Origin: Polyangiales bacterium
GTDB lineage: Bacteria > Myxococcota_A > Polyangia > Polyangiales > Polyangiaceae
Assembly: GCA_038231275.1 (NCBI GenBank)
Contig: JBBRLQ010000009.1
Coordinates: 1-64,000, forward strand
Length of the DNA: 64,000 bases
Reading direction: 5' to 3'
Shown: in pieces, positions 30,287-54,824 of the stretch
Position numbering within the stretch: position 1 is the first letter of the stretch
How the letters are laid out: each line of letters begins with the position of its first letter
Notes under the pieces: generated by a model
Told to the model about the DNA's origin: nothing
Database searches by the model: none
Seen by the model: the letters and a program-made list of their open reading frames with translations, nothing else
Made by a program: the position numbers and the translations under genes

Positions 30287-30526
30287 ATGAAGTCGCGAAC
30301 GATCCTCCTCCTTCTCGCGGTGACGGCCGCGTCAGGAAGCGCTGCCGCACGGGACGCGGGCGCCCTCTACAAAGAACGAAGCGCGGACTTCGCCTCGTGC
30401 CCGGTCAACGCGACCTCGTCCGTGCTTTGTGACCCCGCTGGCGGGGCCGGGGTTTGTCCGGCCGGAAAGACTTGCCAGGTAACCAACCTCGGCAACGTCC
30501 CGGCGGCGTACCATTCGTGTCAGTGA
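30287..30526 (+). CDS. Small secreted Cys-rich protein (79 aa)
   Basis: MKSRTILLLLAVTAASGSAAA signal; 5 Cys; stop overlaps next GTG (GTGA). Confidence 0.65.
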   Translation: MKSRTILLLLAVTAASGSAAARDAGALYKERSADFASCPVNATSSVLCDPAGGAGVCPAGKTCQVTNLGNVPAAYHSCQ

Positions 30527-31119
30527 GCACCAAAGTCGCGATCATCCTCGCCGCAGGATCGGGAGAACGAATGGGGGGCAGCAAGGCGCTGCTTCGAATC
30601 GACGGGCACGCGCTGGCCGCGCTCCACGTCGCGCGGGCCCTCGAGGCCGGCTGCGATCGCGTCGTCGTCGTGACGCGTCCGGACGCCGCCGCACGCCTTG
30701 GTGAGATCGCGCGCGCGACGATCCTCGCGGCGGAGACCGCGGGTCAGGCCGAGTCGCTTCAGACGGCGGCGCGCAAGGTCGGAATGCGAGGCGATGTTCG
30801 CGTCGTCGTGACACCGGTCGATTGTCCTCCCGTGTCGGTCGCGACGTTCAAGGCGCTCTTCACGGCGCTCGACAACGGCGCGAGCGTCGCCACGCCACAT
30901 CGCGCAGGCAAAGGCGGACACCCCGTGGCGTGCACGTCCAGCGTGCTTGCTCCGTATGCATCGAAAGATCCCGCGCCACCGCCGCCGCTGCGCGACGTGC
31001 TCGCGAAGTACGAGACGACACGCACGCGCGTCGAGGTGGACGATCCCAAGGTGGGCATCGATCTCGACACACCCGCGGACGTCCTCGCATTCACCGGAGC
31101 GCAGCCCTCGTTCGTCTGA
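30523..31119 (+). CDS. MocA/MobA-like nucleotidyltransferase (probable Moco cytidylyltransferase)
   Basis: ILAAGSGERMGGSKALL, PVDCP, GGHPV, DLDTP; upstream of XDH genes. Confidence 0.85.
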   Translation: MSTKVAIILAAGSGERMGGSKALLRIDGHALAALHVARALEAGCDRVVVVTRPDAAARLGEIARATILAAETAGQAESLQTAARKVGMRGDVRVVVTPVDCPPVSVATFKALFTALDNGASVATPHRAGKGGHPVACTSSVLAPYASKDPAPPPPLRDVLAKYETTRTRVEVDDPKVGIDLDTPADVLAFTGAQPSFV

Positions 31120-31143
31120 CGGGCAGGGCCAGGGCGACTCCCC

Positions 31144-31506
31144 ATGGCGATCTGGCACCTCTACCTCGCACGTTGCGCAGACGGATCGCTTTATTGCGGC
31201 ATCGCCCGTGACGTCCGCGCACGTCTCGAAGCCCATGATGCCGGAAAGGGGGCGCGGTACACGCGCGGCAGGGGGCCTCTCGAGCTCCTCCTGACGCGGC
31301 GGTGCCGTGACCGAAGTCAGGCCCTGCGCCTCGAGCTCCTCGTCAAGGCGCTGCCCCGCGCCGACAAGCTCGCCGCCGCCGCGCGCCCCCGCCGGCTCGA
31401 CCGCCTGGCGAAAGAGGCGCTTTTGTCGAAAAATGCCGGCAAAAGCGCGGTATCGTCCCAAGCTCGTTCGACCGCGCGGGCACGAACGACGAGGAGGCGA
31501 GCGTGA
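31144..31506 (+). CDS. GIY-YIG nuclease family (YazA/UPF0213-like)
   Basis: YLARCADGSLYCGI, RLEAH, GKGARYTRGRGP. Confidence 0.9.
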   Translation: MAIWHLYLARCADGSLYCGIARDVRARLEAHDAGKGARYTRGRGPLELLLTRRCRDRSQALRLELLVKALPRADKLAAAARPRRLDRLAKEALLSKNAGKSAVSSQARSTARARTTRRRA

Positions 31507-33770
31507 CCACGAACGGGACGGGCAGCAGGGAGAAGACCGTCGGAACGAACGTCTCGCGCGTCGACGGCCGCGCCAAGGTCACCGGCAAGGCTGCCTACGT
31601 GGACGATCTCGCGACCCCGGGCGCGCTGTTCGGCGCGACCGTGCGAAGCGACGTCGCGCGCGGAACGTTGCGCGGCATCGTCAAGGACCCCGCGTTCGAC
31701 TGGACCGGCATCACGGTCGTCACCGCCGCCGACATCCCCGGCGACAACGTCGTCGCGCTCATCGAAGACGATCAGCCCCTCCTCGCCAAGGACGCCATTC
31801 GGCACGTCTACGAACCCGTCGCGCTCGTCGCCTGCGCCGATCCGGTGCGCCTCCAGAAGGCCGTCGCCGCCATTTCGCTCGACGTCGAAAAGCTCCCGCC
31901 CGTCCTCTCCATCGAAGACGCCGAGGCGAAGACGCAGATCATCCACGGCACGGACAACGTGCAGAAGCGCTACGTCATCGAGCACGAGCTCGGCGGCAAG
32001 ACGATCGACGAGCTCATCGCCGCCTGCGACGTCGTGCTCACCGGCCGCTACGCCGTGCACCACCAAGAGCAGATGTACATCGAGCCGCAAGGCATGATCG
32101 CGCACTGGGAGGAGGAGGGCGGACCGACCCCGGGGGTCCACGTTACGGGCTCCCTCCAATGCCCCTTCTACGTGCACAAGGCGATGAAGCGCGCGTTCGG
32201 GCTCGAGGGCGACAAGGTCCACATCGGCCAAGCGGTGACCGGCGGCGGCTTCGGAGGAAAAGAGGAGTACCCCAGCATCGTCGCCGCGCACGCCGCGCTC
32301 CTCTCCAAGGTGGCCGGCAAGCCGGTCCGCATGATCTACGGCCGCAAAGAAGACATCGAGGCCACGACCAAGCGCCACCCGGCGCGCGTCGAGATCACGA
32401 CGGGATGCACCAAGACCGGCGAGCTCGTCGCGCTGAAGATCGAGTGCGCTATGGACGGCGGCGCGTACGTCACGCTCACGCCAGTGGTCCTCTCGCGCGG
32501 CATCCTCCACGCGGCCGGCGCCTACAAGTGGAAGCACGCGCGCGTGCACGGCTGGGCCGTCGCCACCAACACGCCGCCGAACGGCGCCTTCCGGGGCTTC
32601 GGCGCGCCGCAGACGATCTGGGCGATCGAGCGCCACATGGACCGCCTCGCCGAAAAGCTCGGAAGAGAGCCGCTCGCGCTGCGCCAGCAGAACGTCCTCG
32701 GCATCGGCTCGGTGACCGTCACCGGCCAGACGCTCACCGAGAGCGTCGGCGTCGTCGAGTGCATCGAGAAGGCCACCAAGGCCAGCGACTATTTCGTGAA
32801 ACGTGCACACTACAATGAACCGTCGCCGCCCCACGCGCGCACGCGCCGCGGCATCGGGGCCGCCGTGTTCATGCATGGCGCGGGCTTCACCGGCAGCGGC
32901 GAGCGGCGCCTCAAGGGGAAGGTTCAGGTCGACCTCGAGCAGGGCGGCGTCCTCCGCGTTCGCAGCGCGTCGACCGACATCGGGCAGGGCACCGAGACGA
33001 TCTTCCGCCAGATCGCCGCCGACGCCGCGGAGCTCCCGTTCGACTCCATCGTCGTCGAGACACCCAACACCTCGAACGTCCCCGACTCGGGCCCCACCGT
33101 CGCGTCGCGCACCGTCATGGTCGTCGGCTCCATCGTCGGCAAGGCCGCAAAGCAAGTCGCCGATCGCGTCCGCGGGACCGGCGCCGGCGACTTCGCGAAG
33201 CTCGCCGACGCGCTCCTCGCGAAGGAGAAGACCGTCAGCGCCCTCGTCGAGTACGAGCCGCCCCTCAAGATCCAGTTCAACGACGAGACGTACCGCGGCG
33301 ACGCGTACCCTTGCTACGCGTGGGCGTGCGACATCGCGGAGGTCGAGGTCGATCTCGACACCTTCGAGACCAAGGTGCTCGGGTTTTGGGCCGCGCAGGA
33401 CATCGGCAAGGCCATCCACCCGCTGATGTGCGCCGGCCAGGTCGAAGGCGGCACGCTGCAGGCCATTGGCTGGGCGCTCTACGAGAACGTCGTCTGGAAG
33501 GACGGGCACATCATGAACCCGCGCATGACCAACTACGTGATCCCAACCAGCAAGGACGCGCCGCCGTTCACGACGTTCCTCGTCGAGCACCCGTTCTCGG
33601 GCGGACCGAGCGGCGCAAAGGGGGTCGGTGAGCTCCCGATGGATGGCGGGGCGCCCGCGATCGCGGCCGCCGTCGAGCAGGCGATACGTGCAAAGTGCAA
33701 CGATCTGCCGCTTCTCCCCGAGGATCTGTTCCGCGCCGTACGCGCGGCCCGCGAAGGAGCGCGATCGTGA
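31503..33770 (+). CDS. Xanthine dehydrogenase family molybdopterin-binding subunit
   Basis: KVTG, GGGFGGKE, AFRGFGAPQ, DIGQG, GQVEGG, AKGVGE. Confidence 0.93.
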   Translation: MTTNGTGSREKTVGTNVSRVDGRAKVTGKAAYVDDLATPGALFGATVRSDVARGTLRGIVKDPAFDWTGITVVTAADIPGDNVVALIEDDQPLLAKDAIRHVYEPVALVACADPVRLQKAVAAISLDVEKLPPVLSIEDAEAKTQIIHGTDNVQKRYVIEHELGGKTIDELIAACDVVLTGRYAVHHQEQMYIEPQGMIAHWEEEGGPTPGVHVTGSLQCPFYVHKAMKRAFGLEGDKVHIGQAVTGGGFGGKEEYPSIVAAHAALLSKVAGKPVRMIYGRKEDIEATTKRHPARVEITTGCTKTGELVALKIECAMDGGAYVTLTPVVLSRGILHAAGAYKWKHARVHGWAVATNTPPNGAFRGFGAPQTIWAIERHMDRLAEKLGREPLALRQQNVLGIGSVTVTGQTLTESVGVVECIEKATKASDYFVKRAHYNEPSPPHARTRRGIGAAVFMHGAGFTGSGERRLKGKVQVDLEQGGVLRVRSASTDIGQGTETIFRQIAADAAELPFDSIVVETPNTSNVPDSGPTVASRTVMVVGSIVGKAAKQVADRVRGTGAGDFAKLADALLAKEKTVSALVEYEPPLKIQFNDETYRGDAYPCYAWACDIAEVEVDLDTFETKVLGFWAAQDIGKAIHPLMCAGQVEGGTLQAIGWALYENVVWKDGHIMNPRMTNYVIPTSKDAPPFTTFLVEHPFSGGPSGAKGVGELPMDGGAPAIAAAVEQAIRAKCNDLPLLPEDLFRAVRAAREGARS

Positions 33771-34243
33771 TCCGCTTCAAGGTCAACGGCGCCGCGCGCG
33801 AGACCGACGCGCCGCCCCTGGCGCGATTGCTCGATGTTCTTCGCGTACCCCTCGGGCTCACCGGGACCAAGGAGGGCTGCGGAGAAGGGGAGTGCGGCGC
33901 GTGCTCGGTCCTCCTCGACGGCGTGCCGGTCAACTCGTGCCTCGTCGCCGTTGGGCAGTGCGAAGGCCGAGACATCGTCACCGTCGAAGGGCTCGCCCAT
34001 GGAGAAGAGCTGACACCGCTGCAGCGCGCGTTCGTCGAGGATGGCGGCGCGCAGTGCGGCATCTGCACGCCGGGCATGCTCGTCGCCGCGGAGGCGCTCC
34101 TGCGCCGGAACACCCGACCCACCGATGACGACATCCGCGACGCCATCGCCGGCAACCTATGCCGGTGCACGGGCTACCAGCGCATCGTCGACTCGATCCA
34201 GGCCGCCGCCGCCGCCGTTCGCGCGAAAGGGAGCCGAGCATGA
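33767..34243 (+). CDS. XDH family 2x[2Fe-2S] subunit
   Basis: GTKEGCGEGECGAC, NSC, QCGICTPG, NLCRCTGY. Confidence 0.95.
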   Translation: MIRFKVNGAARETDAPPLARLLDVLRVPLGLTGTKEGCGEGECGACSVLLDGVPVNSCLVAVGQCEGRDIVTVEGLAHGEELTPLQRAFVEDGGAQCGICTPGMLVAAEALLRRNTRPTDDDIRDAIAGNLCRCTGYQRIVDSIQAAAAAVRAKGSRA

Positions 34244-35139
34244 GCGCCTATGCCCCCGCCGGCCTCGAGCGCACGGAGATGGCGCGTCCCAAGACGATCG
34301 TCGAAGCGTGCAGGATCCTCGCGCAGGCCGTTCGGGCAAAAAAGACCGCGAGCCTGCTCGCCGGCGGCACAGACGTCATCGTCGATCGCCACCTGATGCC
34401 CGTGGCGAAGGCGCACGCGATCGATTTGATCGTCGACGTCACCGGAGTCGAGGAGCTCGTGCGCATCTCCGAACGCGACGTCGGCGGCGAGCGGCACCTC
34501 GTCTTCGGAGGCGGCGTCACCTACTGGCAGCTCCGCACCGACGCGCGCGTCACGGGCACGATCCCCATGCTCGACGCGATGGCCAAAGACGTCGGCGCCG
34601 TGCAGATCCAGACGCGCGGCACACTCGCCGGAAACATCGCGACCGCGTCGCCCGCGGCCGATGGCGTGCCGGCGCTGATGGCGCTCGACGGCAAGGTCAC
34701 GCTCGTCAAGGACGGCGGCGCGCGCACGGTGCCGCTCGACCAGTTCTTCCTCGCGTACCGGAAGACCGTGCTCGCGCCCGACGAGCTCATCGCTGAGATC
34801 GCCGTTCGCGTTCCAAAGGACGGCGCGCGCGTTCGGTGGCGAAAGGTCGGCACCCGCCTCGCGCAGGCGATCAGCAAAGTGGCGCTCGCGAGCGTCGTCG
34901 AAGAGGAGGGCGGCGTCATCACGCGCGCGCGCTTCGGGATGGCGTCGGTCGCCGCAGTCCCGCACCCGCTCGCCGGCGTGCGCGCCCTCGTCGAAGGAAA
35001 ATCCACCAAGAGCCTCGACCGAGCCGCCATCGACGCGGCGATCGACCGAGAAATCAAGCCGATCGACGACGTGCGCAGCACCGGGCCGTACCGGCTCCAC
35101 GTGGCCAAGGCGCTCGTGTGGCGGGCGCTCGCTCCATGA
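34240..35139 (+). CDS. XDH family FAD-binding subunit
   Basis: AGGTD, IQTRGTLAGNIATASPAAD, PIDDVRSTGPYR. Confidence 0.93.
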   Translation: MSAYAPAGLERTEMARPKTIVEACRILAQAVRAKKTASLLAGGTDVIVDRHLMPVAKAHAIDLIVDVTGVEELVRISERDVGGERHLVFGGGVTYWQLRTDARVTGTIPMLDAMAKDVGAVQIQTRGTLAGNIATASPAADGVPALMALDGKVTLVKDGGARTVPLDQFFLAYRKTVLAPDELIAEIAVRVPKDGARVRWRKVGTRLAQAISKVALASVVEEEGGVITRARFGMASVAAVPHPLAGVRALVEGKSTKSLDRAAIDAAIDREIKPIDDVRSTGPYRLHVAKALVWRALAP

Positions 35140-36494
35140 TCTTCGTCTCGCGCCGCGTCGCGCTCCCGGACGGCGTGCGCCCCGCGTCGGTGCACGTGAC
35201 GGGCGGCACGATCGTGAGCGTCCGCGGCCCTCTCGACCTCACGCCCGGCGAACCGGTCACGGACGTCGGCGAGGCGGTGCTCTTGCCGGGCCTCGTCGAC
35301 ACTCACGTCCACATCAACGATCCGGGCCGCGCCACGTGGGAGGGATTCGACACCGCTACGCGCGCGGCGGCGGCAGGCGGCGTCACTACGCTCGTCGACA
35401 TGCCGCTCAACAGCATCCCGCCGACGACGACCCTCGCCGGCCTCGAGGCCAAGGCGAGCGCCGCCGACGGGCGCCTCATGGTCGACGTCGGCTTCTGCGC
35501 CGGGCTCGTCCCGAGCAGCGTCGGCCAGCTCCGCGCGATGTGGGACGCTGGCGCGATCGCGTTCAAGTGCTTCCTCGCCGACTCCGGCGTCCCCGAGTTC
35601 TCGCACGTCGAAGAGGCGGATCTGGCCGCTGGCATGCGCGAGCTCGCCGGCTTCGGCGCGCCGCTGCTCGTCCACGCCGAGCTCCCGGGCCCCCTCGCCC
35701 GCGCGGCCGAGGCGCAAGCGAAGGCCGGCGCGATCGATCCGCGCACCTACGCCGCGTGGCTCGACTCCCGCCCGCGCGAAGCCGAGGACCTCGCGATCGA
35801 TCTCGTTATCCGCCTGTCGAAGGACACCGGCGCGCGCGCCCACGTCGTGCACCTCTCGAGCTCCACCGCGCTCGCCGCGATAAGGCGTGCCAAGGACGCG
35901 CACGCGCCGTTCAGCGCCGAGACGTGCCCGCACTACCTCACGTTCGCGGCCGAAGAGATCCCAGAGGGCGCCACCGAGTACAAGTGCGCGCCGCCGATCC
36001 GCGAAGCCGAGAACCGCGATCGGCTCTGGGACGCCCTCCGCGAGCGCCTCCTCGATCAAGTCGTCACCGATCACTCGCCGTCGACGGCGGAGCTGAAATG
36101 CTGCGGCTCCGGCGATTTCGTCGCCGCGTGGGGAGGCATCGCCTCGCTCCAGCTCGGACTCGCCGCGGTCTGGACGAGCGCGCGCGCGCGCGGCGCCACG
36201 ATCGCAGACGTCGCCGATTGGATGTGCGCGGCGCCGGCCCGCCTCGTCGGCCTCTACGGCGCGAAGGGCTGCATCGCAGCGGGTGCGTCGGCCGATTTCG
36301 CGGTCTGGGATCCGGACGCCGACTTCGCGGTCGACGCGCTCCGCCTCGAGCACAAGAACAAGGTGACGCCCTACCACGGGCGCACGCTGCGCGGACGCGT
36401 CCTCCAGACGTGGCTGCGCGGCGAGAAGATCTTCGACCGCGGGACCTTCCCGGCGTCTCCACGAGGACGCTGGCTGAGACGAGGAGCAGCATGA
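35136..36494 (+). CDS. allB: Allantoinase
   Basis: PGLVDTHVHINDPG, DMPLNSIP, FKCF, HAE, ETCPHY, KCAPPIR, DHSP, WGGI. Confidence 0.93.
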   Translation: MIFVSRRVALPDGVRPASVHVTGGTIVSVRGPLDLTPGEPVTDVGEAVLLPGLVDTHVHINDPGRATWEGFDTATRAAAAGGVTTLVDMPLNSIPPTTTLAGLEAKASAADGRLMVDVGFCAGLVPSSVGQLRAMWDAGAIAFKCFLADSGVPEFSHVEEADLAAGMRELAGFGAPLLVHAELPGPLARAAEAQAKAGAIDPRTYAAWLDSRPREAEDLAIDLVIRLSKDTGARAHVVHLSSSTALAAIRRAKDAHAPFSAETCPHYLTFAAEEIPEGATEYKCAPPIREAENRDRLWDALRERLLDQVVTDHSPSTAELKCCGSGDFVAAWGGIASLQLGLAAVWTSARARGATIADVADWMCAAPARLVGLYGAKGCIAAGASADFAVWDPDADFAVDALRLEHKNKVTPYHGRTLRGRVLQTWLRGEKIFDRGTFPASPRGRWLRRGAA

Positions 36495-37978
36495 GCGACT
36501 TCACCGAGCTGGTCGATCTGGCCGCCGAGCGCCTGGGCGCCGCGGCGATCGCGACGAACGACGATTTCTTCGCCTCGAAGGACAACCTCCTCAAGGCCGC
36601 GCCCGCGGTCTTCATCGACGGCAAGTACACCGATCGCGGAAAATGGATGGACGGCTGGGAGTCGCGCCGAAGGCGTACGCCCGGCCACGACTGGTGCATC
36701 GTGCGCCTCGGCGCGCCGGGCGTCGTGCACGGCGTCGTCGTCGACACCGCGTTCTTTCGTGGCAATTTCCCCGAGGAATGCTCGATTGAAGCGTGCAGTG
36801 TGCATGCAAACGCCGACGCCGCGTTCCTCACGTCGGGCGATGTGACGTGGTTCGAGCTCCTCCCGAGGACGACGCTGCAGGGCGACACGAAGAACGCGTT
36901 CGAGATCGCCGCGCGGCAACGCGTCACGCACCTGCGCCTCAACATCTTCCCCGACGGCGGCGTCGCGCGCCTGCGCGTGCACGGGCGGGTCATGCCCGAC
37001 GTGCGCTGGATGGGGAAGGCCGGCGCCGAGGTCGACCTCGCGAGCGTCGAGAACGGCGGCGTCGTCACGTCGTGCAACGACATGTTCTTCGGCTCGCGCC
37101 ACAACCTCGTCATGCCCGGGCGCGGCGTGAACATGGGCGACGGCTGGGAGACGAAGCGCAGCCGCCGCGAGGGACCTGACTGGGTCATCGTGAAGCTCGC
37201 CGCGCTCGGCGTGCTCTCGCGCGTCGAGGTCGACACCGCGCACTTCAAAGGGAACTTCCCCGAGAGCTGCGCGCTTCAAGCGCGGCGCGGCGATGGGCCG
37301 TGGCAGGACGTGCTCCTGCGCACCAAGCTGCAAGCGCACACGCGTCACTTCTACGACGCCGAGCTCCTCGCGCACGATCCCGCGACCGAGGTGCGCCTGC
37401 AAATTTTCCCCGACGGAGGCGTCAGCCGGCTCCGCCTCTGGGGGACGGTCACGACCGAGGGGCGCGAGGCGTTCGGCATCGAGCGGCTGAACCTGCTCTC
37501 TCCCTCCGACGCCGAGCGCGAGCTCCTCGCGTGCTGCGGCGCGCCGTCGTGGGCGAGAACGATGGTCGCCGCGCGCCCGTTCGCGAGCCTCTCTTTGGCG
37601 AAGAGCACCGCGCGTGAAGTTTGGAGCACCCTCACGAAGAGCCACTGGCTCGAGGCGTTCCGTGCGCATCCGCGCATTGGCGAGAAGAAGGCCGAGAAGG
37701 AACAAGGCGCGACCGCCAAGCAATGGTCGACCGAGGAGCAGTCGAAGGCCGCGACCGCGAGCGCCGAGACGATCGCCGCCCTCGAGGCCACGAACCGCGC
37801 GTACGAGGCCAAATTCGGCCACATCTACATCGTGTGCGCCACCGGCAAGACCGCCGACGAGATGCTGGCGCTCGCGAAGGCGCGCCTGGGGAACGACGCG
37901 GCGACCGAGCTCGCGGTCGCCGCCGAGGAGCAGGCCAAGATCACGGATTTGCGGCTCGAAAGATTGGTGAGGGGATGA
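36491..37978 (+). CDS. alc: Allantoicase fused to C-terminal OHCU decarboxylase
   Basis: Two allantoicase repeats (DGWESRRRR and DGWETKRSR; PDGGVARLR and PDGGVSRLR) then UraD-like AHPRIG, NRAYEAKFG, VCATG, ITDLRL. Confidence 0.92.
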   Translation: MSDFTELVDLAAERLGAAAIATNDDFFASKDNLLKAAPAVFIDGKYTDRGKWMDGWESRRRRTPGHDWCIVRLGAPGVVHGVVVDTAFFRGNFPEECSIEACSVHANADAAFLTSGDVTWFELLPRTTLQGDTKNAFEIAARQRVTHLRLNIFPDGGVARLRVHGRVMPDVRWMGKAGAEVDLASVENGGVVTSCNDMFFGSRHNLVMPGRGVNMGDGWETKRSRREGPDWVIVKLAALGVLSRVEVDTAHFKGNFPESCALQARRGDGPWQDVLLRTKLQAHTRHFYDAELLAHDPATEVRLQIFPDGGVSRLRLWGTVTTEGREAFGIERLNLLSPSDAERELLACCGAPSWARTMVAARPFASLSLAKSTAREVWSTLTKSHWLEAFRAHPRIGEKKAEKEQGATAKQWSTEEQSKAATASAETIAALEATNRAYEAKFGHIYIVCATGKTADEMLALAKARLGNDAATELAVAAEEQAKITDLRLERLVRG

Positions 37979-38310
37979 GCATCACGACCCACGTCCTCGA
38001 TACGTCGCGCGGCAAGCCCGCCGCAGGCGTCGCGCTGCAATTGAGCTTGAGCGAAGGCGGCACCTTCCGCCTCCTCGGGCGCGGGATGACCGACGCGGAC
38101 GGGCGGTGCCGCGATCTGCTCACACCCGGGCCGCTCGCGCTCGGTGTCTACCGGGTGACGTTCGACGTCGCCGCGTACTTCGCAGCGCAGTCGATCGAGA
38201 CCTTCTACCCGACGGTGAACATCCACTTCGACGTGAAGGACGCGGGCGGTCACTACCACGTGCCGCTCCTCTTGAGCCCGTGGGGATATTCGACCTACCG
38301 GGGGAGCTGA
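37975..38310 (+). CDS. uraH: 5-hydroxyisourate hydrolase
   Basis: ITTHVLDT, DGR, HYHVPLLLSP, C-terminal YRGS. Confidence 0.96.
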   Translation: MSITTHVLDTSRGKPAAGVALQLSLSEGGTFRLLGRGMTDADGRCRDLLTPGPLALGVYRVTFDVAAYFAAQSIETFYPTVNIHFDVKDAGGHYHVPLLLSPWGYSTYRGS

Positions 38311-38354
38311 CGTCGAGGAGTGGATGCGCGACGAACGAGGAGTAGTCTACGCCG

Positions 38355-39272
38355 ATGACGGACGAAGGCGCGAAGCCCCCGAGCGATCCCGAGACCGAGC
38401 CCAAGGACCCGAAGGCCGACCCCGCGGCACCTGCCGCGCCGGTCGTACCGGCCGCACCAGAGCGCGAGCGAACGGTGCTCGGCCTTGGAGACTCTCCGCC
38501 GGAGCCGGAGCCGGCCCCCAAGCCTGCCGCCGCGCCGGCGCCCGCGCCCGCGCGCGAGCCGACGGTGACCGGCGTGGGGCCGCGCGAAAAGACCGTCATC
38601 GGCATCGGCGAAGACCCGCCTTCGGCCGTCGGGCTGGTCGTCGCGCCGGAGCCATCGAAGCCGGAGGTCGCGAAGAAGAAGGCCGAGTCGGCGAAGCCCG
38701 CGGCCGAGGCGCGCGTGGTCCCCGAGCCGGCGCGCGAGAAGAAGAAGACCCCCGAGCGACCCGCACGCAAACGCGTCGCGGTGGACACGAGCGACTCGGT
38801 GCACATCCCCACCAGCGGAAGCGGCGGCAGGCTGCTTGCCATCGTCGCGCTCCTCGCGGTCGCGGGCGTCGCGTACGTCGAACGCGCGCGCATCTTCGGC
38901 GAGACGCCGGCGCCCGTGGTGCCTCCCGTCGTCCGCGACGTCGCCCCATCGAGCACGATCCCACCGCCGCCGCCGCCGAGCGCGATGGCGGCCGGTGCGG
39001 TCGACGCGACGACGCAGGACGCGATGGCGCTCGACGCCCAGAGCGACGCCCCCGCGTCCGACGCCGGGCGCGACGCTGGAATTACCGATGGGGGCCGCGC
39101 CGATGGCGGTCGCGACGCCGGCAAACCGGACGCCGGCAAGCCCGACGCCGGAAAGCCCGACGCGGGAAAGGCCGCGCCTGCACCGACCGCGCGCACCGGC
39201 GGCGCCCCGACCAAGCCTCCGCCGCCCAAGCCGGCGCCGAAGCCCAAGCCCGAGAGCGACAACCCGTATTGA
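38355..39272 (+). CDS. Pro/Ala-rich single-TM protein
   Basis: Low complexity, one TM, KPDAG x3, ends DNPY. Confidence 0.75.
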   Translation: MTDEGAKPPSDPETEPKDPKADPAAPAAPVVPAAPERERTVLGLGDSPPEPEPAPKPAAAPAPAPAREPTVTGVGPREKTVIGIGEDPPSAVGLVVAPEPSKPEVAKKKAESAKPAAEARVVPEPAREKKKTPERPARKRVAVDTSDSVHIPTSGSGGRLLAIVALLAVAGVAYVERARIFGETPAPVVPPVVRDVAPSSTIPPPPPPSAMAAGAVDATTQDAMALDAQSDAPASDAGRDAGITDGGRADGGRDAGKPDAGKPDAGKPDAGKAAPAPTARTGGAPTKPPPPKPAPKPKPESDNPY

Positions 39273-39295
39273 GCCGAAGTCTCCGCGGCGGCCGT

Positions 39296-39379
39296 TAGAG
39301 CAAGCGTCGTTACTACGTAACGCTTGCTCTAGCCTTCAGGTGGGTCGCTCCGGTCGTTTGCCCGCCACGGTCAAACGAC
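39296..39379. repeat. Two inverted repeats between convergent genes
   Basis: TAGAGCAAGCGT(39296-39307)/ACGCTTGCTCTA(39320-39331) perfect 12 bp; GTCGTTTG(39353-39360)/CAAACGAC(39372-39379). Confidence 0.8.
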
Positions 39380-39394
39380 ATCCGCTCTACTTCG

Positions 39395-40932
39395 CTACTT
39401 TTTGTGCGGCTTGCGCGGCCGCTTGCGCACCGGTTTGCCCGGCTTCTTGGGCGGCTTCGGGTGCGGCGCGACCTTCGGTGCGCCCGCGTCGGTGGCCACG
39501 CGGTGACCGGCGTCGACGATCTCTTCCTCGCCCGCGTCTTCGTCGTCTTCGTCGTCTCCGCCGTCGTCGTCTCCGCCGTCGTCGAAGTCCATGGCCGCCA
39601 AAGGGGACGCATCCTCCATGGCCGTCGCGTCGATTGAGCCGCCCTCGTCGGCCGCGTCCGCGACGGGCGGTCGCTCGTCACTCTGCGCGAGCGTCGTCGA
39701 CGCGACGGACGCGGGCCCCTTCGTCTCATAGAACGTCTCGTACAGCTCGCGCGCGAAGATGGCCCCGTAGAGGAGGCAGGTCACCAGCGGAATGCTCGAA
39801 CGCCGCGCCCGCCGCAGAGGCACGGACTCCGATGCCGACGCCGACGCCGACGCCGACTCCGACTCCGACTCCGCCGCCGACCCCGCCGGCTCCGACGCCG
39901 GTTCCGGGGGCTTCGTCCGCGGGGGCGGCGGAGGCGGCGGCACGACCGGCTCGAGATCCCCCTCGGACAAGTGCTGCGTCGGCTCCACCGGGGGCGCGGC
40001 GGGGAGCGGCACCGAGATCGGCGCGAACGCGGGCACCGTCGCCGCCTCGCCGGCGTACTCGACGAGCACCTTCTCCACGTCGGCGCGCATCGCCGCCGCG
40101 TCCGGATAGCGATCCTCTCGCCGGAACGCGAGCGCGCGATCGATCACGCGCGCGAAGCGCTCCGACACGCTCGGCGCGACGTCGCGGATCGGCGGCGCGG
40201 GGAGCTTGGCCATCTTCGTGACGACCTCGACCGGGTTGTCGCCCTCGTGGATGCGCTTGCCGGTGAGGAGGCGGAAGCCGGTCGCGCCGACCGCGAACAA
40301 GTCGGTGCGCCCGTCGATCTCCTCGGTGCGCCCCGCGGCCTGCTCGGGAGACATGTACGATGGGGTCCCGAGCGCGAGGCCCGCGCCGGTCACGCGCTCG
40401 CCCTCCATGAGTCGCGCGAGGCCGAAATCGAGCACTTTCACGCGGAGCGCGCCGTCCTCGTCACGCGCGAGGAAGAGGTTCTCGGGCTTCAGATCGCGGT
40501 GGACCACGCCGTGCGCGTGCGCGGCCTCGAGCACCTCGAGCACGGCGCGCGCGATTGTCAGAAATTCGCGCTCCGTCAACGGAGGCGCACGCTCCGCGCG
40601 ATCCTGGAGCGACTCGCCGTCGAGCAGCTCCATCACGAGGTAGGCGGTGCCGTCGTCGGGGCCGCCGCTCACGATGTCGTCGTCGAGGACCTTCACCGCG
40701 CCGCGATGCTCGACGCGGTTTGCGGCGTACCCCTCGCGAAGGAAGCGTTCGCGCACCTGCGAGATCCGCGCGAGGTTCGAATGGAGCAGCTTCACCGCCG
40801 CGCGGGCGCCGTTGCGATGACGCCCGGCGTACACCGCCGCCATGCCGCCCACGCCGATGAGGCGCTCGAGCGTCCACTTGTCGTTCAGGACGTCGCCGAC
40901 GCGCGCCTGGGCCCGGACCTCCGCGTCGTCGC

Positions 40933-40936
<4 letters not shown>
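39395..40936 (-). CDS. Ser/Thr protein kinase, membrane-associated
   Basis: GVGGMA, AAVK, HRDLKPEN, DFG, GTPSYMSPE; hydrophobic segment, acidic then basic tail; TTG start overlapping upstream stop assumed. Confidence 0.92.
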
Positions 40937-41463
<527 letters not shown>

Positions 41464-41507
41464 GGCCGACCCAATCTACCCGATCCTGCGCTGCCGCCGA
41501 AACGGCC

Positions 41508-43124
41508 TTATTTCCCGGGCAGCGTGAGCTCGACGGTCGCGGTGCCCTTGGCCTCGACCTTCAGCTTCTGCGTCACGCGACCGAAGATCTCGTGCCACGC
41601 GCCGATCTCGATCTCCCCGCCCGCCGGGACGTTCTCGAGCACGACCTCGCCCTTGTCGTTCGATACCGCGAAGTACGGGTGCGCGACGACGCCGACGAAG
41701 CCGCTCATCCACGGGTGAATGTCGCACTTCGCGGTGATCATGATCTCGGGCCGGCCGAACGTCTTGGTGAGCCGCGTGTCCTTCGTCGCCATCGCCTCGT
41801 TGAACGTCGCGTTGTCCTTCGCGATGGTGCGGACGTTGTGGAACACCGGATCGCTGTTCAAGAAGGTCACCCGCTGCCCGACCTGCGCGCCGACAACGTG
41901 CGGGCCGTACATGCACGCGCGCTGATCCACGGTCACCTCGTCGTTGGGCGGGCCGTCGCGCCACTCGCCGATGCCCTTGTCGATCCAGACGAACGCGTTC
42001 TGCACGAGCCCCGCCTTGACGAGCGCGGTGTTCGAGAGGAACGGCCCCTTTACGTCGGGCGCGCAGTTGCTCGGGATCGCCAGCTCCACCGGCGGCGGCA
42101 CCGCGCCTCCGAAGTGGACGATCGCGCGCACGGTCCCCACGCCGCCCGGCGATTTCGGCGCGAAGCTCGGGCCGCCCTTGCTCGGCGCGAACACGAGCGG
42201 CAGCGGCTTCCCTCCGCCGTCGCCGGACGACGCCGTCGACGTCAGGCCGGAGTTGGCGACGACGAGGACCGTGCCCAGGATCGCGAAGACGATCCCCGGC
42301 GAGCGATCGCCTGTGTTCTCGAAGTGCCGCGCCGCCGCGCCGACGATCATGAGGCCGCCGAGCACCGCCCACGCCCACGTGCTCCCGTACGTGGTCGGGA
42401 AGTGGTTCGAGAGCATGATGAACACGACGGGGTACGTCATGTAGTTGTTGTGACGGGAGCGCTGCTTGGCGCGCTTGCCGAGCGTCGCGTCGGGGGCGCG
42501 CCCCTCCTTCACCGCGGCGACGAGGCCGCGCTGCGCCGGGATGATGCGCATCGCGACGTTGCCCACCATCCACGTGCCCATCATCGCGCCGGTGTGGATG
42601 TACGCCGCGCGCCCGCTGAAGAAGCGCCCGAAGAACCACGCCGACCCGACCACGAACGCGAACGTGACGATGGCGCCGAAGAGCGTGCTCTTCGCGAGCG
42701 GCGAGAGCCAGAACAGATCGTAGAGGACCCACGACACCGCGATGGTGCCGAGCCCGATCGCCATGCCCACGGGCGCGGAGATGCTCGAGACGCTCGCGTC
42801 GAGGAGGAGCACGCCGCCGCCCGTGTAGTAGACGACGCCGAGGAGCACGACGCCCGTGATCCACGTGAAGTACGCCTCCCACTTGAACCAGTGGAGCGTC
42901 TTGGGCATCTCGCTCGGCGCGACGAGCTTCTTCTCGACCTGGTAGAAGCCGCCCGAGTGGACCATCCACAGCTCGCCTTCGACGCCCTTCTTCGGCGTCG
43001 CGGGTTTCTCGAGGTGGCTGTCGAGCCAGTTGAAGAAGATCGACGTTCCGATCCACATGATCCCCGCGAGGATGTGCATCCAGCGGACGATGAGGTGGAG
43101 CCATTCGCTGACGAGGGCGCCCAT
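41508..43124 (-). CDS. puuD: PuuD-type membrane urate oxidase domain fused to cupredoxin-like/carboxypeptidase-regulatory-like domain
   Basis: N-term RWMHILAGIMWIGTS, LWMVHSGGFY, LHWFKWEAYFTWITG, SGRAAYIHTGA, IIPAQR, KQRSRHNNYMTYPV, MLSNHFP; C-term DQxxC, HNV, CDIHPWM, HPYFA, WHE; no CxxCH. Confidence 0.88.
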   Translation of the reverse strand: MGALVSEWLHLIVRWMHILAGIMWIGTSIFFNWLDSHLEKPATPKKGVEGELWMVHSGGFYQVEKKLVAPSEMPKTLHWFKWEAYFTWITGVVLLGVVYYTGGGVLLLDASVSSISAPVGMAIGLGTIAVSWVLYDLFWLSPLAKSTLFGAIVTFAFVVGSAWFFGRFFSGRAAYIHTGAMMGTWMVGNVAMRIIPAQRGLVAAVKEGRAPDATLGKRAKQRSRHNNYMTYPVVFIMLSNHFPTTYGSTWAWAVLGGLMIVGAAARHFENTGDRSPGIVFAILGTVLVVANSGLTSTASSGDGGGKPLPLVFAPSKGGPSFAPKSPGGVGTVRAIVHFGGAVPPPVELAIPSNCAPDVKGPFLSNTALVKAGLVQNAFVWIDKGIGEWRDGPPNDEVTVDQRACMYGPHVVGAQVGQRVTFLNSDPVFHNVRTIAKDNATFNEAMATKDTRLTKTFGRPEIMITAKCDIHPWMSGFVGVVAHPYFAVSNDKGEVVLENVPAGGEIEIGAWHEIFGRVTQKLKVEAKGTATVELTLPGK

Positions 43125-43215
43125 GTTCAGGCGGTAAAGTACTCGTTTTTCGGGGGTTTTAGCCACATTTCGCGCGGACCAAACCGCGGGCGCGACGTGC
43201 TGCTACACTGACACT

Positions 43216-43875
43216 GTGATCCGCGTCGTAGAGGTCGTCGTCGCCGTCGTGGTCACGTGTCTCGGCGCCTGCGCGTCGCACGACACCAAGCCGACCGCGC
43301 AAGGCGACAACGTCACGCCGCCCCCGTCGCCGCAGCTCCCTCAGACCGGCGACTACCCGCCAGGACCGTTCGGGTGGACCGTCGGCGACGTCTTCCCGCG
43401 CGTGCAAATGATGGGGTACGTCGGCGGGCAGAAGCCGTGGACGACCATCGACACGAAGGACTACTTCGATCCGCACGGCACGCGCGGCATCTACGGCGTC
43501 TACATCACGGTCAGCGCGCCGTGGTGCTCGGGCTGCAAGATCGAAGGGCAGGAGCTCCCCGCGCTCTGGACCGCGCAGTACAAGGCACGTGGCGCACGCA
43601 TCATCACGGCGCTCCTCCAGAACGACGCGTACGAACCGGCGTCGCAGAACACCGTCGACGCGTGGGTCGCGACCTACGCGACGCCGTACGACATCTCGGT
43701 CGGCGCCCTCTCGTCGATGCTCCCCCCCAAGACGCCCGGCAACGGCGTCGCGCTCCCCTACAACTACGCGGTCGATCCGCGGACGATGCGCATCGTCGGG
43801 ATCGACTCGGGCGACTACTTCCACGGCGACACGCTGCCGGCGCTCAACGTCGCGCTCGCCACCAACGGGAAATAG
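43216..43875 (+). CDS. Thioredoxin-like (TlpA/redoxin-like) lipoprotein
   Basis: LGAC lipobox; SAPWCSGC; LPYNYAVDP cis-Pro loop region. Confidence 0.8.
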   Translation: MIRVVEVVVAVVVTCLGACASHDTKPTAQGDNVTPPPSPQLPQTGDYPPGPFGWTVGDVFPRVQMMGYVGGQKPWTTIDTKDYFDPHGTRGIYGVYITVSAPWCSGCKIEGQELPALWTAQYKARGARIITALLQNDAYEPASQNTVDAWVATYATPYDISVGALSSMLPPKTPGNGVALPYNYAVDPRTMRIVGIDSGDYFHGDTLPALNVALATNGK

Positions 43876-43917: not shown

Positions 43918-45366
43918 TCAGCCGGGCGTGCCCTTGCGGCGGCTCTCCATGATCTTGGCGAACGATCGGCCGCGGATCTCGTCGAGCGTGAGGCCGGTGG
44001 CGAGCGCCTCTTCTTCCGTGATCGCGCCGCTGTTGATGCCGCGGAGGAAGAAGTTGAGGAGTCCTTGGCCGGTCGCAGCGTCGTCGAAGACGTCGCCGAC
44101 GAGCGTGGCCTGGGCCGCCTTCTGCACGAAATTCTTGAGGCGCTCGCTCGCCGCCGGCAGCCCCTCGAGGAAGAACGCGATGACCGTGGCGTAGCGCGTG
44201 GGGAGCTGCGCGGGGTGCAGATCCCAGCCCTGGTAGTAGCCCTGCTTGAGCGAATGCAGAACTTGCTCGGAGTGCAGGCGCCACGCCGAGTGAACGGCCG
44301 CGCGGTTCTCGACGATCTGTTGCGCGGTGAGCGCAGCGCCGTCCTTCGCGCGGTGCGGCGCGATGGGCATGATGTTCGTCGCGCCGTCGGAGAGCCACAC
44401 GCCGGTCGCGGCGAGCGTGACCTGCATGACGTGCTTCGCGAAATCGCAGGCCGGGTGCGTCATCCCTTGGTAGGCGGCGGTGATGCTGCAGCTCGCGGTG
44501 TAGTCGTACGTCCCGAAGTGCGCGGCGACGAGGCGGCCGCGGCTGGCGTCGAGCAGGTGAGAGGCAGTCGCCTCGCCGTCCGCGTCGAAGACCGACTGCG
44601 TCGTCTCGATCATGATCTCGAACTTGAGCGAGCCTTGCGGCAGCTTGAGCTGGCGCTCGAAGATGTCGAAGAGATCGGCGAGCGCGGTGACCTGCTCCGG
44701 GATGGTGACCTTGGGGAGCGTCACGACGAAGTTCTGCGGGAGGCCCTTGCCGGTGGCGATCAGCGTGGACAAGAACACGTCGACCGTGCGGAAGCTCCGC
44801 GCGCGCAGCTCCTCGGTGAACGGCTTGATGCGGATGCCGATGAACGGCGGCAGCGAATTTTGCGCGATGCCCTTCGCCACCTCTTCGGCGGCGGCGACGG
44901 CGTGACCGTCCTCTTCTGCGTCGGGGCGGTTGCCATAGCCGTCCTCGAAGTCGATGCGAAAATCCTCGACCGGCTCGTTGGCGAGCTTGGCGGTGACGCG
45001 CGAGTAGACCGCGTGAGCGAGCCACGCCGGTGCGTTGCCTGCGCGCGCGCCCGCCGGATCGTCCGTGACCTTGCGCACGAGCGCGCCGATCTCGGCAGGC
45101 GCGTCGGGCAAGCGGTCCCACCCGGGGAGATGAACGGCGCGCGCGAAGGTGACGAAGTCGGGTGCGAACTGCTCGAGCGAGCCAAGCGCCACCTTGCCGA
45201 GCTTCGCCGCCGCGTCCGACTTGAAGAGGTGCGCGCCGCCGTACACCGTGTGGACCGGCTGCCGGCGGCTGCTCTCGCCCGGGTAGCGCCGCGCGAACAT
45301 GACGTTCGCGTCCTTGAGGCGAGCGGTGAGGGCGTTGGTCGTCTCGGGGGTCAGCGTCGTCTTCAT
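43918..45366 (-). CDS. HpcH/HpaI aldolase-citrate lyase superfamily protein (DUF6986-like)
   Basis: RQPVHTVYGGA, DFRIDFEDGYG, TLPKV, EIMIET, HFGTYDY, LSDGATN, QGWDLHPAQ. Confidence 0.85.
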   Translation of the reverse strand: MKTTLTPETTNALTARLKDANVMFARRYPGESSRRQPVHTVYGGAHLFKSDAAAKLGKVALGSLEQFAPDFVTFARAVHLPGWDRLPDAPAEIGALVRKVTDDPAGARAGNAPAWLAHAVYSRVTAKLANEPVEDFRIDFEDGYGNRPDAEEDGHAVAAAEEVAKGIAQNSLPPFIGIRIKPFTEELRARSFRTVDVFLSTLIATGKGLPQNFVVTLPKVTIPEQVTALADLFDIFERQLKLPQGSLKFEIMIETTQSVFDADGEATASHLLDASRGRLVAAHFGTYDYTASCSITAAYQGMTHPACDFAKHVMQVTLAATGVWLSDGATNIMPIAPHRAKDGAALTAQQIVENRAAVHSAWRLHSEQVLHSLKQGYYQGWDLHPAQLPTRYATVIAFFLEGLPAASERLKNFVQKAAQATLVGDVFDDAATGQGLLNFFLRGINSGAITEEEALATGLTLDEIRGRSFAKIMESRRKGTPG

Positions 45367-45432
45367 GTCTTGTTCCGCGTCGCACGTTAGCAGATGCAGC
45401 GGGCGCCGTGGCGCGTGTACCCTCCCCGGTCG

Positions 45433-45912
45433 ATGCCTCAGCCCCTCGTACGCTTCGGCCGATGGACGGTCCGCGCCGAGCCGGAGAAGACCCGCGCCGC
45501 GTACACCGGCCTGGTCGCGGCGTCGGAGCGCTGCGGGTGCAACATCTGCCGCAACTACCAGGCCGCGCGCGATCAGGTCTTCGGCGACGCGCCGCGCGCG
45601 CTCCTCGCCCAGCTCGGCATCGACGCCACGCGCGAGATCGAGGTCCTCCACACGCACCGAATCGCGCGCGGCCGCCACGCGTACCAGGGGTGGTTCCACC
45701 TGTTCGGCGGCCTCGAAGGGGGCAAGGACGCCTACGTCCCGCGCGGACCAGAGGCGTTCGCCGTCGAGCTCGAGGCGTGCGGCGAGTCGCTCTCGTTCGG
45801 CTTCACGACGCGCCTCGCGCTCGTGTCGAACGCGTGGGTCAACGCGCAGGTCATCCAGCTCGAGTTCGCGGCGATCGTCCCGTGGGTGCTCGAGATCGAC
45901 GAGCCCTCGTGA
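45433..45912 (+). CDS. Hypothetical protein with CxCxxC motif
   Basis: CGCNICRNY, YQGWFH; stop overlaps MTase GTG. Confidence 0.72.
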   Translation: MPQPLVRFGRWTVRAEPEKTRAAYTGLVAASERCGCNICRNYQAARDQVFGDAPRALLAQLGIDATREIEVLHTHRIARGRHAYQGWFHLFGGLEGGKDAYVPRGPEAFAVELEACGESLSFGFTTRLALVSNAWVNAQVIQLEFAAIVPWVLEIDEPS

Positions 45913-54700: not shown

Positions 54701-54824
54701 CTACACGTACGTCGCGCGCGCGACGACGCCGGGCGACTTCGTGGTCGCGCCGCCGAAGGCCGAAGAGATGTACATGCCGGAGACGTTCGGCCGCGGCGCG
54801 GGGGACCGGGTCGTCGTGGAATAG
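48736..54824 (+). pseudogene. Alpha-2-macroglobulin family lipoprotein split by a single-base frameshift (may be a sequencing error)
   Basis: LGGC lipobox, DRHMYRPGE, EEFRRPEFEV, VVDEAVLAL; frame changes near 52356-52359; then LPDSLTRYRV, PRFLNFGD, thioester CNEQ, YVARATTPG, EMYMPE. Confidence 0.88.

Follow-up and report, generated by a model that had tools for sequence, protein, structure and literature searches.

By what route would a membrane-bound urate oxidase release its electrons if the cytochrome c that is held to define its family were replaced by another redox domain? The question is raised by a puuD-like gene in a 64,000-nucleotide stretch of a Polyangiales bacterium (GenBank assembly GCA_038231275.1, contig JBBRLQ010000009.1; the whole stretch is referred to here as the window), the product of which is, judged by its sequence, a PuuD-family membrane urate oxidase with a blue-copper domain instead of the outward-facing cytochrome c. 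In the available text of the paper on PuuD by Doniselli (2015; PMC4562309), the protein is given eight helices and a C-terminus outside the membrane, CXXCH is called strictly conserved in all PuuD sequences, and the published definition has a cytochrome c in every DUF989 protein of full length; copper, cupredoxin, plastocyanin, and azurin do not occur in that text. An initial annotation of the window, made from the letters alone, had proposed a copper-coupled enzyme that passes electrons through a periplasmic copper site. Building mainly on sequence comparison, the analysis reported here puts the probability at about 0.75 that this copper-type PuuD is the organism's urate oxidase and passes its electrons via a periplasmic type-1 copper centre. 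To our knowledge, PuuD is the least understood urate oxidase: a single genetic study supports it, and neither a purified enzyme nor a structure nor a cofactor of its membrane part is known.

The gene and its domains

The gene and the parts of its predicted product are laid out as follows.

41508..43166, reverse strand: puuD-like open reading frame (ORF), 552 amino acids (aa) from a GTG at 43166, with the stop codon at 41508-41510
43124, reverse strand: ATG of a shorter start of the same ORF, giving 538 aa, the form listed in a public protein collection (P0002)
42225..43124, reverse strand: Urate_ox_N (DUF989) membrane domain, aa 15-314, from Pfam and an AF2 model
42144..42224, reverse strand: Ser/Gly/Pro-rich linker after transmembrane helix 8 (TM8), aa 315-341, placed by alignment and variable among homologues
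41511..42143, reverse strand: periplasmic C-terminal module, aa 342-552, in which a cupredoxin is inserted into a transthyretin/CarboxypepD_reg-like beta-sandwich
41685..41945, reverse strand: cupredoxin insert, aa 408-494 (module residues 74-160), from fold and profile matches
42063..42065, reverse strand: Cys368, invariant, predicted disulfide partner of Cys418
41913..41915, reverse strand: Cys418, invariant, predicted disulfide partner of Cys368
41838..41840, reverse strand: His443 (in F-H-N-V), predicted N-terminal type-1 copper ligand, from alignment and invariance
41706..41726, reverse strand: Cys481-Asp-Ile-His484-Pro-Trp-Met487, predicted copper ligand loop with amicyanin spacing, from alignment and invariance

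The genome is metagenome-assembled (9.28 Mb, 164 contigs, 94% complete), a provenance that invites the suspicion that the gene is decaying or is an assembly chimera. One 1,702-nt contig of the probable source run covers 41400-43038 with 0 differences. Another study has, in two of its runs, a 301-nt contig that differs at 7 positions and extends over 42094-42393, from helices 7 and 8 into the module. Contigs from two studies thus span the domain junction, the fusion recurs in 20 species genomes and in 70 of 120 listed protein clusters (see below), and the frame is open, with a G+C content at third codon positions (GC3) of 0.95, the top value of the window. The assembly chimera that the initial annotation had named as a possible refutation is itself refuted, and the joint alternative of chimera or decay retains a negligible probability.

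A predicted copper module in place of cytochrome c

A script check of the whole puuD-like protein finds Cys at 368, 418, and 481 only and no C..CH motif anywhere, in agreement with what had been noticed at first, and Pfam and NCBIfam scans give no match to a cytochrome c family; the NCBIfam scan returns no PuuD model and only faint matches to amicyanin (E 0.043) and pseudoazurin (E 0.066), each from the single sequence. The codons of the F-H-N-V histidine and of the C-D-I-H-P-W-M loop lie, by script, exactly where the initial annotation had put them, and the two further cysteines that it had mentioned are Cys368 and Cys418.

The model of residues 335-552 (218 aa, AF2 with a homologue alignment) is a confident one, with a predicted local distance difference test score (pLDDT) of 95.5 and a predicted template modelling (TM) score (pTM) of 0.91. 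Compared with PDB entries by Foldseek, it gives 91 matches at E ≤ 0.001; among the rows listed, all have the cupredoxin fold, most being amicyanin, plastocyanin, pseudoazurin, and the cupredoxin domains of nitrite reductases (entries of three-domain nitrite reductases, 6tfd and 6hbe, are present), and the top ones have E values from 1e-6 to 1e-4, a probability of 1.00, and target-normalised TM scores of 0.7-0.8. VIA-align places the cupredoxin matches at Z 11-12.5 with root-mean-square deviations (rmsd) of 1.6-2.0 over 82-86 residues, including plastocyanin 1b3i (Z 12.3, rmsd 1.6, 85 residues) and amicyanin 1aac (Z 11.5, rmsd 2.0, 86 residues). The same aligner resolves a second domain, in that module residues of about 8-73 and 161-218 together make up a transthyretin/carboxypeptidase-regulatory-like sandwich (with carboxypeptidase D domain II at Z 11.2 and 5aq0 at Z 10.8, in rows that span residues 8-218 with about 80 aligned), and the module has the seven-stranded, prealbumin-like sandwich. 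Because the two domains are nested, with the cupredoxin between the sandwich halves, the copper domain is, in the model, an insertion inside a second beta-sandwich; the cupredoxin-like character first proposed for the C-terminal part holds, with the refinement that a second fold encloses it.

Searched as a single sequence against the PDB, the module matches the purple cupredoxin 5fc9 at E 0.0034 and amicyanins at E 0.1-0.8; as a profile of 82 homologues, it matches 5fc9 at E 5.7e-6, 9cck at 3.3e-4, and amicyanins at 2.4e-3 to 7.2e-3. In HMMER alignments, His443, Cys481, and His484 are in register with the ligands of amicyanin, pseudoazurin, and 5fc9, and Met487 is aligned with the Met of amicyanin and pseudoazurin, the corresponding residue of 5fc9 being Arg. 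His443, Cys481, His484, Met487, Cys368, and Cys418 are invariant in all 82 module homologues, fused and free, and equally so in a 23-sequence alignment (13 fused to Urate_ox_N, 10 free). As the four ligand residues are invariant in 82/82 homologues, the motif is not, on the evidence of the alignment, a chance pattern, and the amicyanin-type set H...C-x2-H-x2-M that had been proposed is backed by sequence, predicted structure, and conservation alike. Cys368 and Cys418 probably form a disulfide that bridges the sandwich and the cupredoxin.

The fold matches also include proteins with open or catalytic copper sites, namely 5fc9 and nitrosocyanin 1iby, and they would suit a copper centre that is itself catalytic in the periplasm, reacting with O2 or urate instead of serving as a relay. 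Against such a centre stand the axial Met, which is present and invariant where the 5fc9 alignment has Arg, and the general consideration that a mononuclear copper site with four ligands offers no open coordination position. The downstream enzymes, moreover, are cytoplasmic according to the available text of PMC4562309, and a catalytic role of the copper is accordingly rated highly improbable.

Pfam CarboxypepD_reg (PF13620) matches all 82 module members at E ≤ 0.1 (best 1.4e-16) and the puuD-like protein itself at 17.3 bits, under the cut-off of 32.3. Since the Pfam cupredoxin models barely detect the copper domain, Pfam architectures show just Urate_ox_N and CarboxypepD_reg, and this concealment may be the reason why the variant has gone unremarked. 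The nearest ESM Atlas clusters of the module are named 'hypothetical protein' only. Because the free homologues start with lipoprotein-type signals, the module is taken to be an exported unit; its sequence distribution marks the 210-aa module as a mobile unit that is found also as a free lipoprotein.

The membrane domain

The assignment of the N-terminal part to PuuD in the initial annotation is borne out by a full-length match to Urate_ox_N (DUF989, PF06181) on residues 18-300 (E 1.7e-110 and 369.5 bits, the cut-off being 26.9), which spans profile positions 2-285 of 295. An AF2 model of residues 15-330 (pLDDT 88.3, pTM 0.84) consists of eight long helices, with a beta-hairpin in the cytosolic loop I-II and low pLDDT in the linker region at its end; from the Lys/Arg-rich loops I-II and V-VI, together with the published topology, the C-terminus is predicted to lie outside. 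Seven residues (His31, His70, His92, His255, Met68, Met200, and Met251) are invariant in 61/61 sequences from all three PuuD classes described below. In the model, His31 and His255 sit in helices 1 and 6 towards the outer ends, where they might, as a conjecture, constitute a cofactor site.

Comparisons of this fold are uninformative as to cofactors. Foldseek gives 0 matches of the membrane-domain model at E ≤ 0.001, and the best VIA-align row is a designed protein (Z 10.4). The values for the haem-b proteins b6f (Z 7.5), Dcytb (Z 7.0), and b561 (Z 6.7) are within helical-bundle noise; as modelled, the fold permits no inference of a haem site from its matches. A complex prediction of the membrane domain with the C-terminal module scored 0.15 against a mark of 0.32 and weighs neither way.

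Purine genes and the urate step

Whether the substrate is urate is best judged from the gene's surroundings, of which the following are relevant.

30454..38310, forward strand: purine-catabolism cluster (MobA-like, GIY-YIG, the Mo, 2Fe-2S, and FAD parts of xanthine dehydrogenase (XDH), AllB, a protein joining allantoicase to 2-oxo-4-hydroxy-4-carboxy-5-ureidoimidazoline (OHCU) decarboxylase, and 5-hydroxyisourate (HIU) hydrolase)
36500-37978, forward strand: the fusion of allantoicase and OHCU decarboxylase, a single open frame, from Pfam
43918..45699, reverse strand: DUF6986 protein, a malate synthase/malyl-CoA lyase-like TIM barrel, Pfam E 1.7e-185

The Pfam scan of the window covered 48 ORFs (33 at E ≤ 1e-5 and 15 at E ≤ 1e-3) and confirmed the XDH, HIU hydrolase, OHCU decarboxylase, and allantoicase that had been read from the letters, the allantoinase being confirmed by its match to AllB TIGR03178 at 543 bits (cut-off 357.85); no uricase or FAD_binding_3 occurs among these ORFs, HpxO and HpyO not having been searched for genome-wide. 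In the whole genome, Uricase (PF01014) has 0 matches and exactly one gene matches Urate_ox_N, and uricase has 0 matches in 5/5 further genomes (92-99% complete) that encode a copper-type PuuD. These searches leave the puuD-like gene as the sole candidate for the urate step, which it had been proposed to fill. The order of allantoicase and OHCU decarboxylase as in the window's fusion recurs in many related loci. The DUF6986 protein, which shows a weak likeness to the TIM barrel of malate synthase and to malyl-CoA lyase, may carry out the last, glyoxylate-consuming part of the ureide pathway; its gene is a recurrent PuuD neighbour and adjoins 23 of the 27 PuuD loci without a periplasmic domain that are introduced below.

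The genome also bears on the fate of the electrons. Because it has four matches to COX1 (haem-copper oxidase subunit I), a high-potential electron sink exists, and because it has three cytochrome c maturation matches, copper would be a choice and not a necessity.

Distribution and evolution of the fusion

When residues 335-552 were searched against a 5.8-billion-protein collection, 1184 candidates and 285 proteins at E ≤ 0.001 were obtained; among the 120 protein clusters listed, 70 have Urate_ox_N (the window's own protein included) and 50 are free. The fused proteins are called 'uncharacterized membrane protein/plastocyanin' by JGI, whereas four of them appear at NCBI as 'urate hydroxylase PuuD'. 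Within the window's phylum, 174 of the 401 genomes sampled match Urate_ox_N, and 91 places, by count of the listing, reach E ≤ 1.8e-84 (full-length Urate_ox_N). The membrane domain and the module are fused in 14 of these 401 genomes, the module following directly downstream in frame (13 of the 14 have a single Urate_ox_N match), and are split into adjacent genes in three. Of 600 candidate stretches from species-representative genomes, 575 carry a gene for a PuuD relative; the best 80 of the 575 were classified by motif and length, and the resulting classes, with the split forms, are given here.

Copper-type PuuD: 20 of 80 loci, 528-558 aa, from 12 Bdellovibrionota, 6 Myxococcota, one 'Proteobacteria', and one metagenome-assembled genome of Lysobacteraceae
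Cytochrome-c-type PuuD: 31 of 80 loci, 384-419 aa, from various phyla
PuuD without periplasmic domain, ending after helix 7: 27 of 80 loci, 255-286 aa, mainly from Acidobacteriota (L012, L017, L019, L023-L025, L032, L036, L038, L041, L042, L044, L051-L053, L057, L060, L063, L065, L066, L072, L074-L079)
PuuD cut by a contig end: 1 of 80 loci
Unclassifiable PuuD (L050): 1 of 80 loci
Split-form loci from the phylum genomes: L082, 1950-3552; L083, 1890-3451; L084, about 1926-3520

In the split form, the module has a gene of its own, which comes after the gene for a DUF989 variant of about 260 aa without the hairpin of loop I-II. The ORFs of L082 and L083 were read, and the second gene encodes a lipoprotein-like protein with the same module and the C-x2-H-x2-M loop; for L084, the check extends to the two adjacent matches only. 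As both fused and split versions occur, the pattern of fission and fusion, taken at the level of sequence, supports a functional partnership of DUF989-type membrane domains with the copper module.

The split forms, which have no purine genes in flanks of about 2 kb, lend some colour to the idea that a DUF989 domain with a cupredoxin oxidises another heterocycle or performs an unrelated redox task, as does a four-helix DUF989 protein reported in a pyrroloquinoline quinone (PQQ)-type cluster (available text of PMC12423496). For the gene of the window, this is very unlikely: its profile match is full-length and takes in the loop I-II hairpin, which is missing from the split forms, no second urate oxidase candidate was found in the genome, and purine clusters accompany it and 18 of its 20 copper-type relatives. 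An HIU hydrolase gene adjoins those 18 loci and allantoicase is found in 15/20; the two loci without HIU hydrolase have no upstream flank, L002 being on a 2.8-kb contig and the gene of L004 lying at a contig end.

A quick maximum-likelihood tree of the membrane core was computed from 80 rows (79 loci and the window, L050 being omitted as too short); it is unrooted, and its sample is the neighbourhood of the query and not the whole PuuD family. The copper label changes four times on this tree, and since at least two of the changes are forced by strongly supported branches, the periplasmic domain has been exchanged repeatedly. A Bdellovibrionota clade of 13 (support 100), the position of L030 inside a cytochrome-c clade (99), and the grouping of the domain-less class as one clade (100) all have starred support values, and the window joins four Labilithrix/Polyangiaceae-like rows with support of 92. 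The architecture that had been noticed is real; it is common and not singular, its periplasmic domain has been exchanged more than once, and it stands beside the cytochrome-c class and a third class without periplasmic domain.

Proposed electron path and its weaknesses

By homology with the Agrobacterium enzyme (Doniselli 2015), the Urate_ox_N domain would oxidise urate at the cytoplasmic side to 5-hydroxyisourate, which would feed the HIU hydrolase and OHCU decarboxylase encoded nearby. The electrons would cross the membrane domain, possibly via a cofactor held by His31 and His255 near the outer face, and reach the type-1 copper centre His443/Cys481/His484/Met487 in the periplasmic cupredoxin, which, in its transthyretin-like sandwich, would be tethered to TM8 by the flexible linker. 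From there, single electrons would go to a periplasmic acceptor of high potential, with a haem-copper oxidase as their final destination, urate thereby being oxidised without H2O2. Past the identity of the domains, the steps (copper binding, electron transfer, and urate oxidation by the copper form) are inferred.

Several observations weigh against this reading. The matches to curated cupredoxin families fall far below their cut-offs (TIGR02657 amicyanin at 14.2 bits against 110.2, TIGR02375 pseudoazurin at 13 bits against 109.85), and Pfam Cupredoxin_1 and Copper-bind match just 8/82 and 5/82 members, with best E of 0.015 and 0.025, respectively; by sequence, the module would work like the amicyanin, pseudoazurin, and Pfam cupredoxin families and be a member of none. 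Because the membrane domain has no solved structural relative, the transmembrane electron path is conjecture, and we know of no PuuD family member for which the cofactor of the membrane domain has been identified. All 20 copper-type loci come from metagenome-assembled genomes, and the search bearing on HpxO and HpyO is the one confined to the window. Finally, the 27 domain-less PuuD genes are monophyletic and lie in purine clusters, and since they manage without a periplasmic domain, the fused carrier may be dispensable, or the electrons may leave another way.

The domain-less loci, which amount to 27 of the 80 and have no homologue of the C-terminal module within about 6 kb, also favour a self-sufficient membrane urate oxidase that would feed quinone or a separate carrier, with the cupredoxin as an accessory for copper sensing or handling, stabilisation, or envelope docking; the presence among the fold matches of cupredoxin-fold copper chaperones and iron-uptake proteins (CupA, FtrB, and EfeO, Z 9.6-10.6) points in the same direction. 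This alternative is nevertheless unlikely, for the full electron-transfer ligand set H-C-H-M is invariant in 82/82, the best fold and sequence matches of the module are electron carriers, and the module sits exactly where the characterised PuuD has its cytochrome c. Urate also requires a high-potential acceptor, which makes quinones unfavourable. An electron-relaying copper centre is therefore retained as the preferred role of the module. A broader extension, in which the core of DUF989 would conduct electrons across the membrane in a general way and have a plug-in periplasmic exit (haem c, blue copper, or none), is put forward tentatively, as a proposal that is rather more doubtful than probable.

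Comparison with known systems

With the PuuD of PMC4562309, as far as its available text goes, the protein shares a full-length, eight-helix DUF989 domain followed after TM8 by a C-terminal redox domain, and a place in a purine-catabolism cluster with no other urate oxidase; it differs in having no cytochrome c or CXXCH, in whose place stands a 210-aa cupredoxin-in-sandwich module with predicted type-1 copper ligands. With amicyanin, pseudoazurin, and plastocyanin, the module shares the Greek-key fold (Z 11.5-12.3) and the motif H...C-x2-H-x2-M, in register and with amicyanin spacing, whereas its cupredoxin is a tethered insert in another domain and has an extra invariant Cys pair. Type-1 copper carriers are interchangeable with c-type cytochromes, and three-domain copper nitrite reductases, in which the tethered electron-transfer domain is either a cupredoxin or a cytochrome c, provide a precedent for such an exchange. 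Those reductases, however, are soluble, periplasmic, and receive electrons, whereas the copper-type PuuD is a membrane enzyme that would give electrons to its domain. The closest relatives in architecture are free lipoproteins of about 305-320 aa (from Verrucomicrobia, Planctomycetes, Acidobacteriota, and others), which have the same nested domains and invariant residues and, unlike the copper-type PuuD, neither a membrane domain nor an assigned function; NCBIfam offered no curated family for the two members scanned (no match for one, a weak off-target match for the other).

A description of copper-type PuuD was not found in the full-text literature, subscription journals being outside the coverage, so that the initial statement that such an electron-carrier swap had not been seen described stands within that range; the JGI label with its '/plastocyanin' already names the fused proteins. 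Two papers that mention both PuuD and cupredoxin were set aside, PMC12423496 because its available text makes no link between them and PMC12636525 because, in the available text, the two are likewise unlinked and puuD is a putrescine gene. On the sequence evidence, copper-type PuuD is a real, recurrent variant of a known enzyme, undescribed in the literature found.

Other features of the window

Several neighbours of the gene were considered as partners. The divergent ORF 43216-43875 (forward strand, 219 aa) has a lipoprotein-like start, a W-C-S-G-C motif, and a thioredoxin-like look; its candidacy as a helper for the copper site or disulfide was dropped, as it matches no family and none of the 80 loci contains a homologue. 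The ORFs 38324-39298 and 45394-45912 were rejected as conserved partners for the same lack of a family match and of homologues in the 80 loci. Located 45 nt downstream of puuD, ORF 40933-41463 (reverse strand, 176 aa) combines a lipoprotein-like signal with a linker of Pro-Thr repeats and a tail rich in Cys, and has no homologue in the other loci; outside the repeat, GC3 prefers it over a long N-terminal extension of the kinase ORF 39395-41404.

Farther away, ORF 95-1765 (reverse strand) matches Pfam Thiol_cytolysin at E 1.4e-45 and is cholesterol-dependent-cytolysin-like, in a high-GC genome. An alpha-2-macroglobulin-like gene is distributed over ORFs 48736-52470 and 51690-54824 (forward strand), which are in different frames and overlap by about 780 nt; the first contains MG2 and the bait region, the second A2M and MG10. 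This two-frame layout may reflect a frameshift or an assembly error.

Significance

Copper-type PuuD is widespread in predatory soil and water bacteria, and the findings revise the definition of the family, in that the periplasmic domain may be haem c or blue copper, may be split off as a lipoprotein, or may be absent. This pattern supports a modular model of electron exit, and the blue copper centre would provide a spectroscopically convenient handle on the flow of electrons out of the enzyme. If the more doubtful, broader extension is correct, the copper module would represent a dedicated, as yet unnamed partner family of DUF989 membrane oxidoreductases, with the exit either fused or supplied as a neighbouring lipoprotein. 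Likewise, Myxococcota and Bdellovibrionota would wire urate from digested prey through copper to a terminal oxidase, and purine breakdown in these bacteria would be a respiratory, energy-conserving source of electrons and not mere nitrogen salvage.

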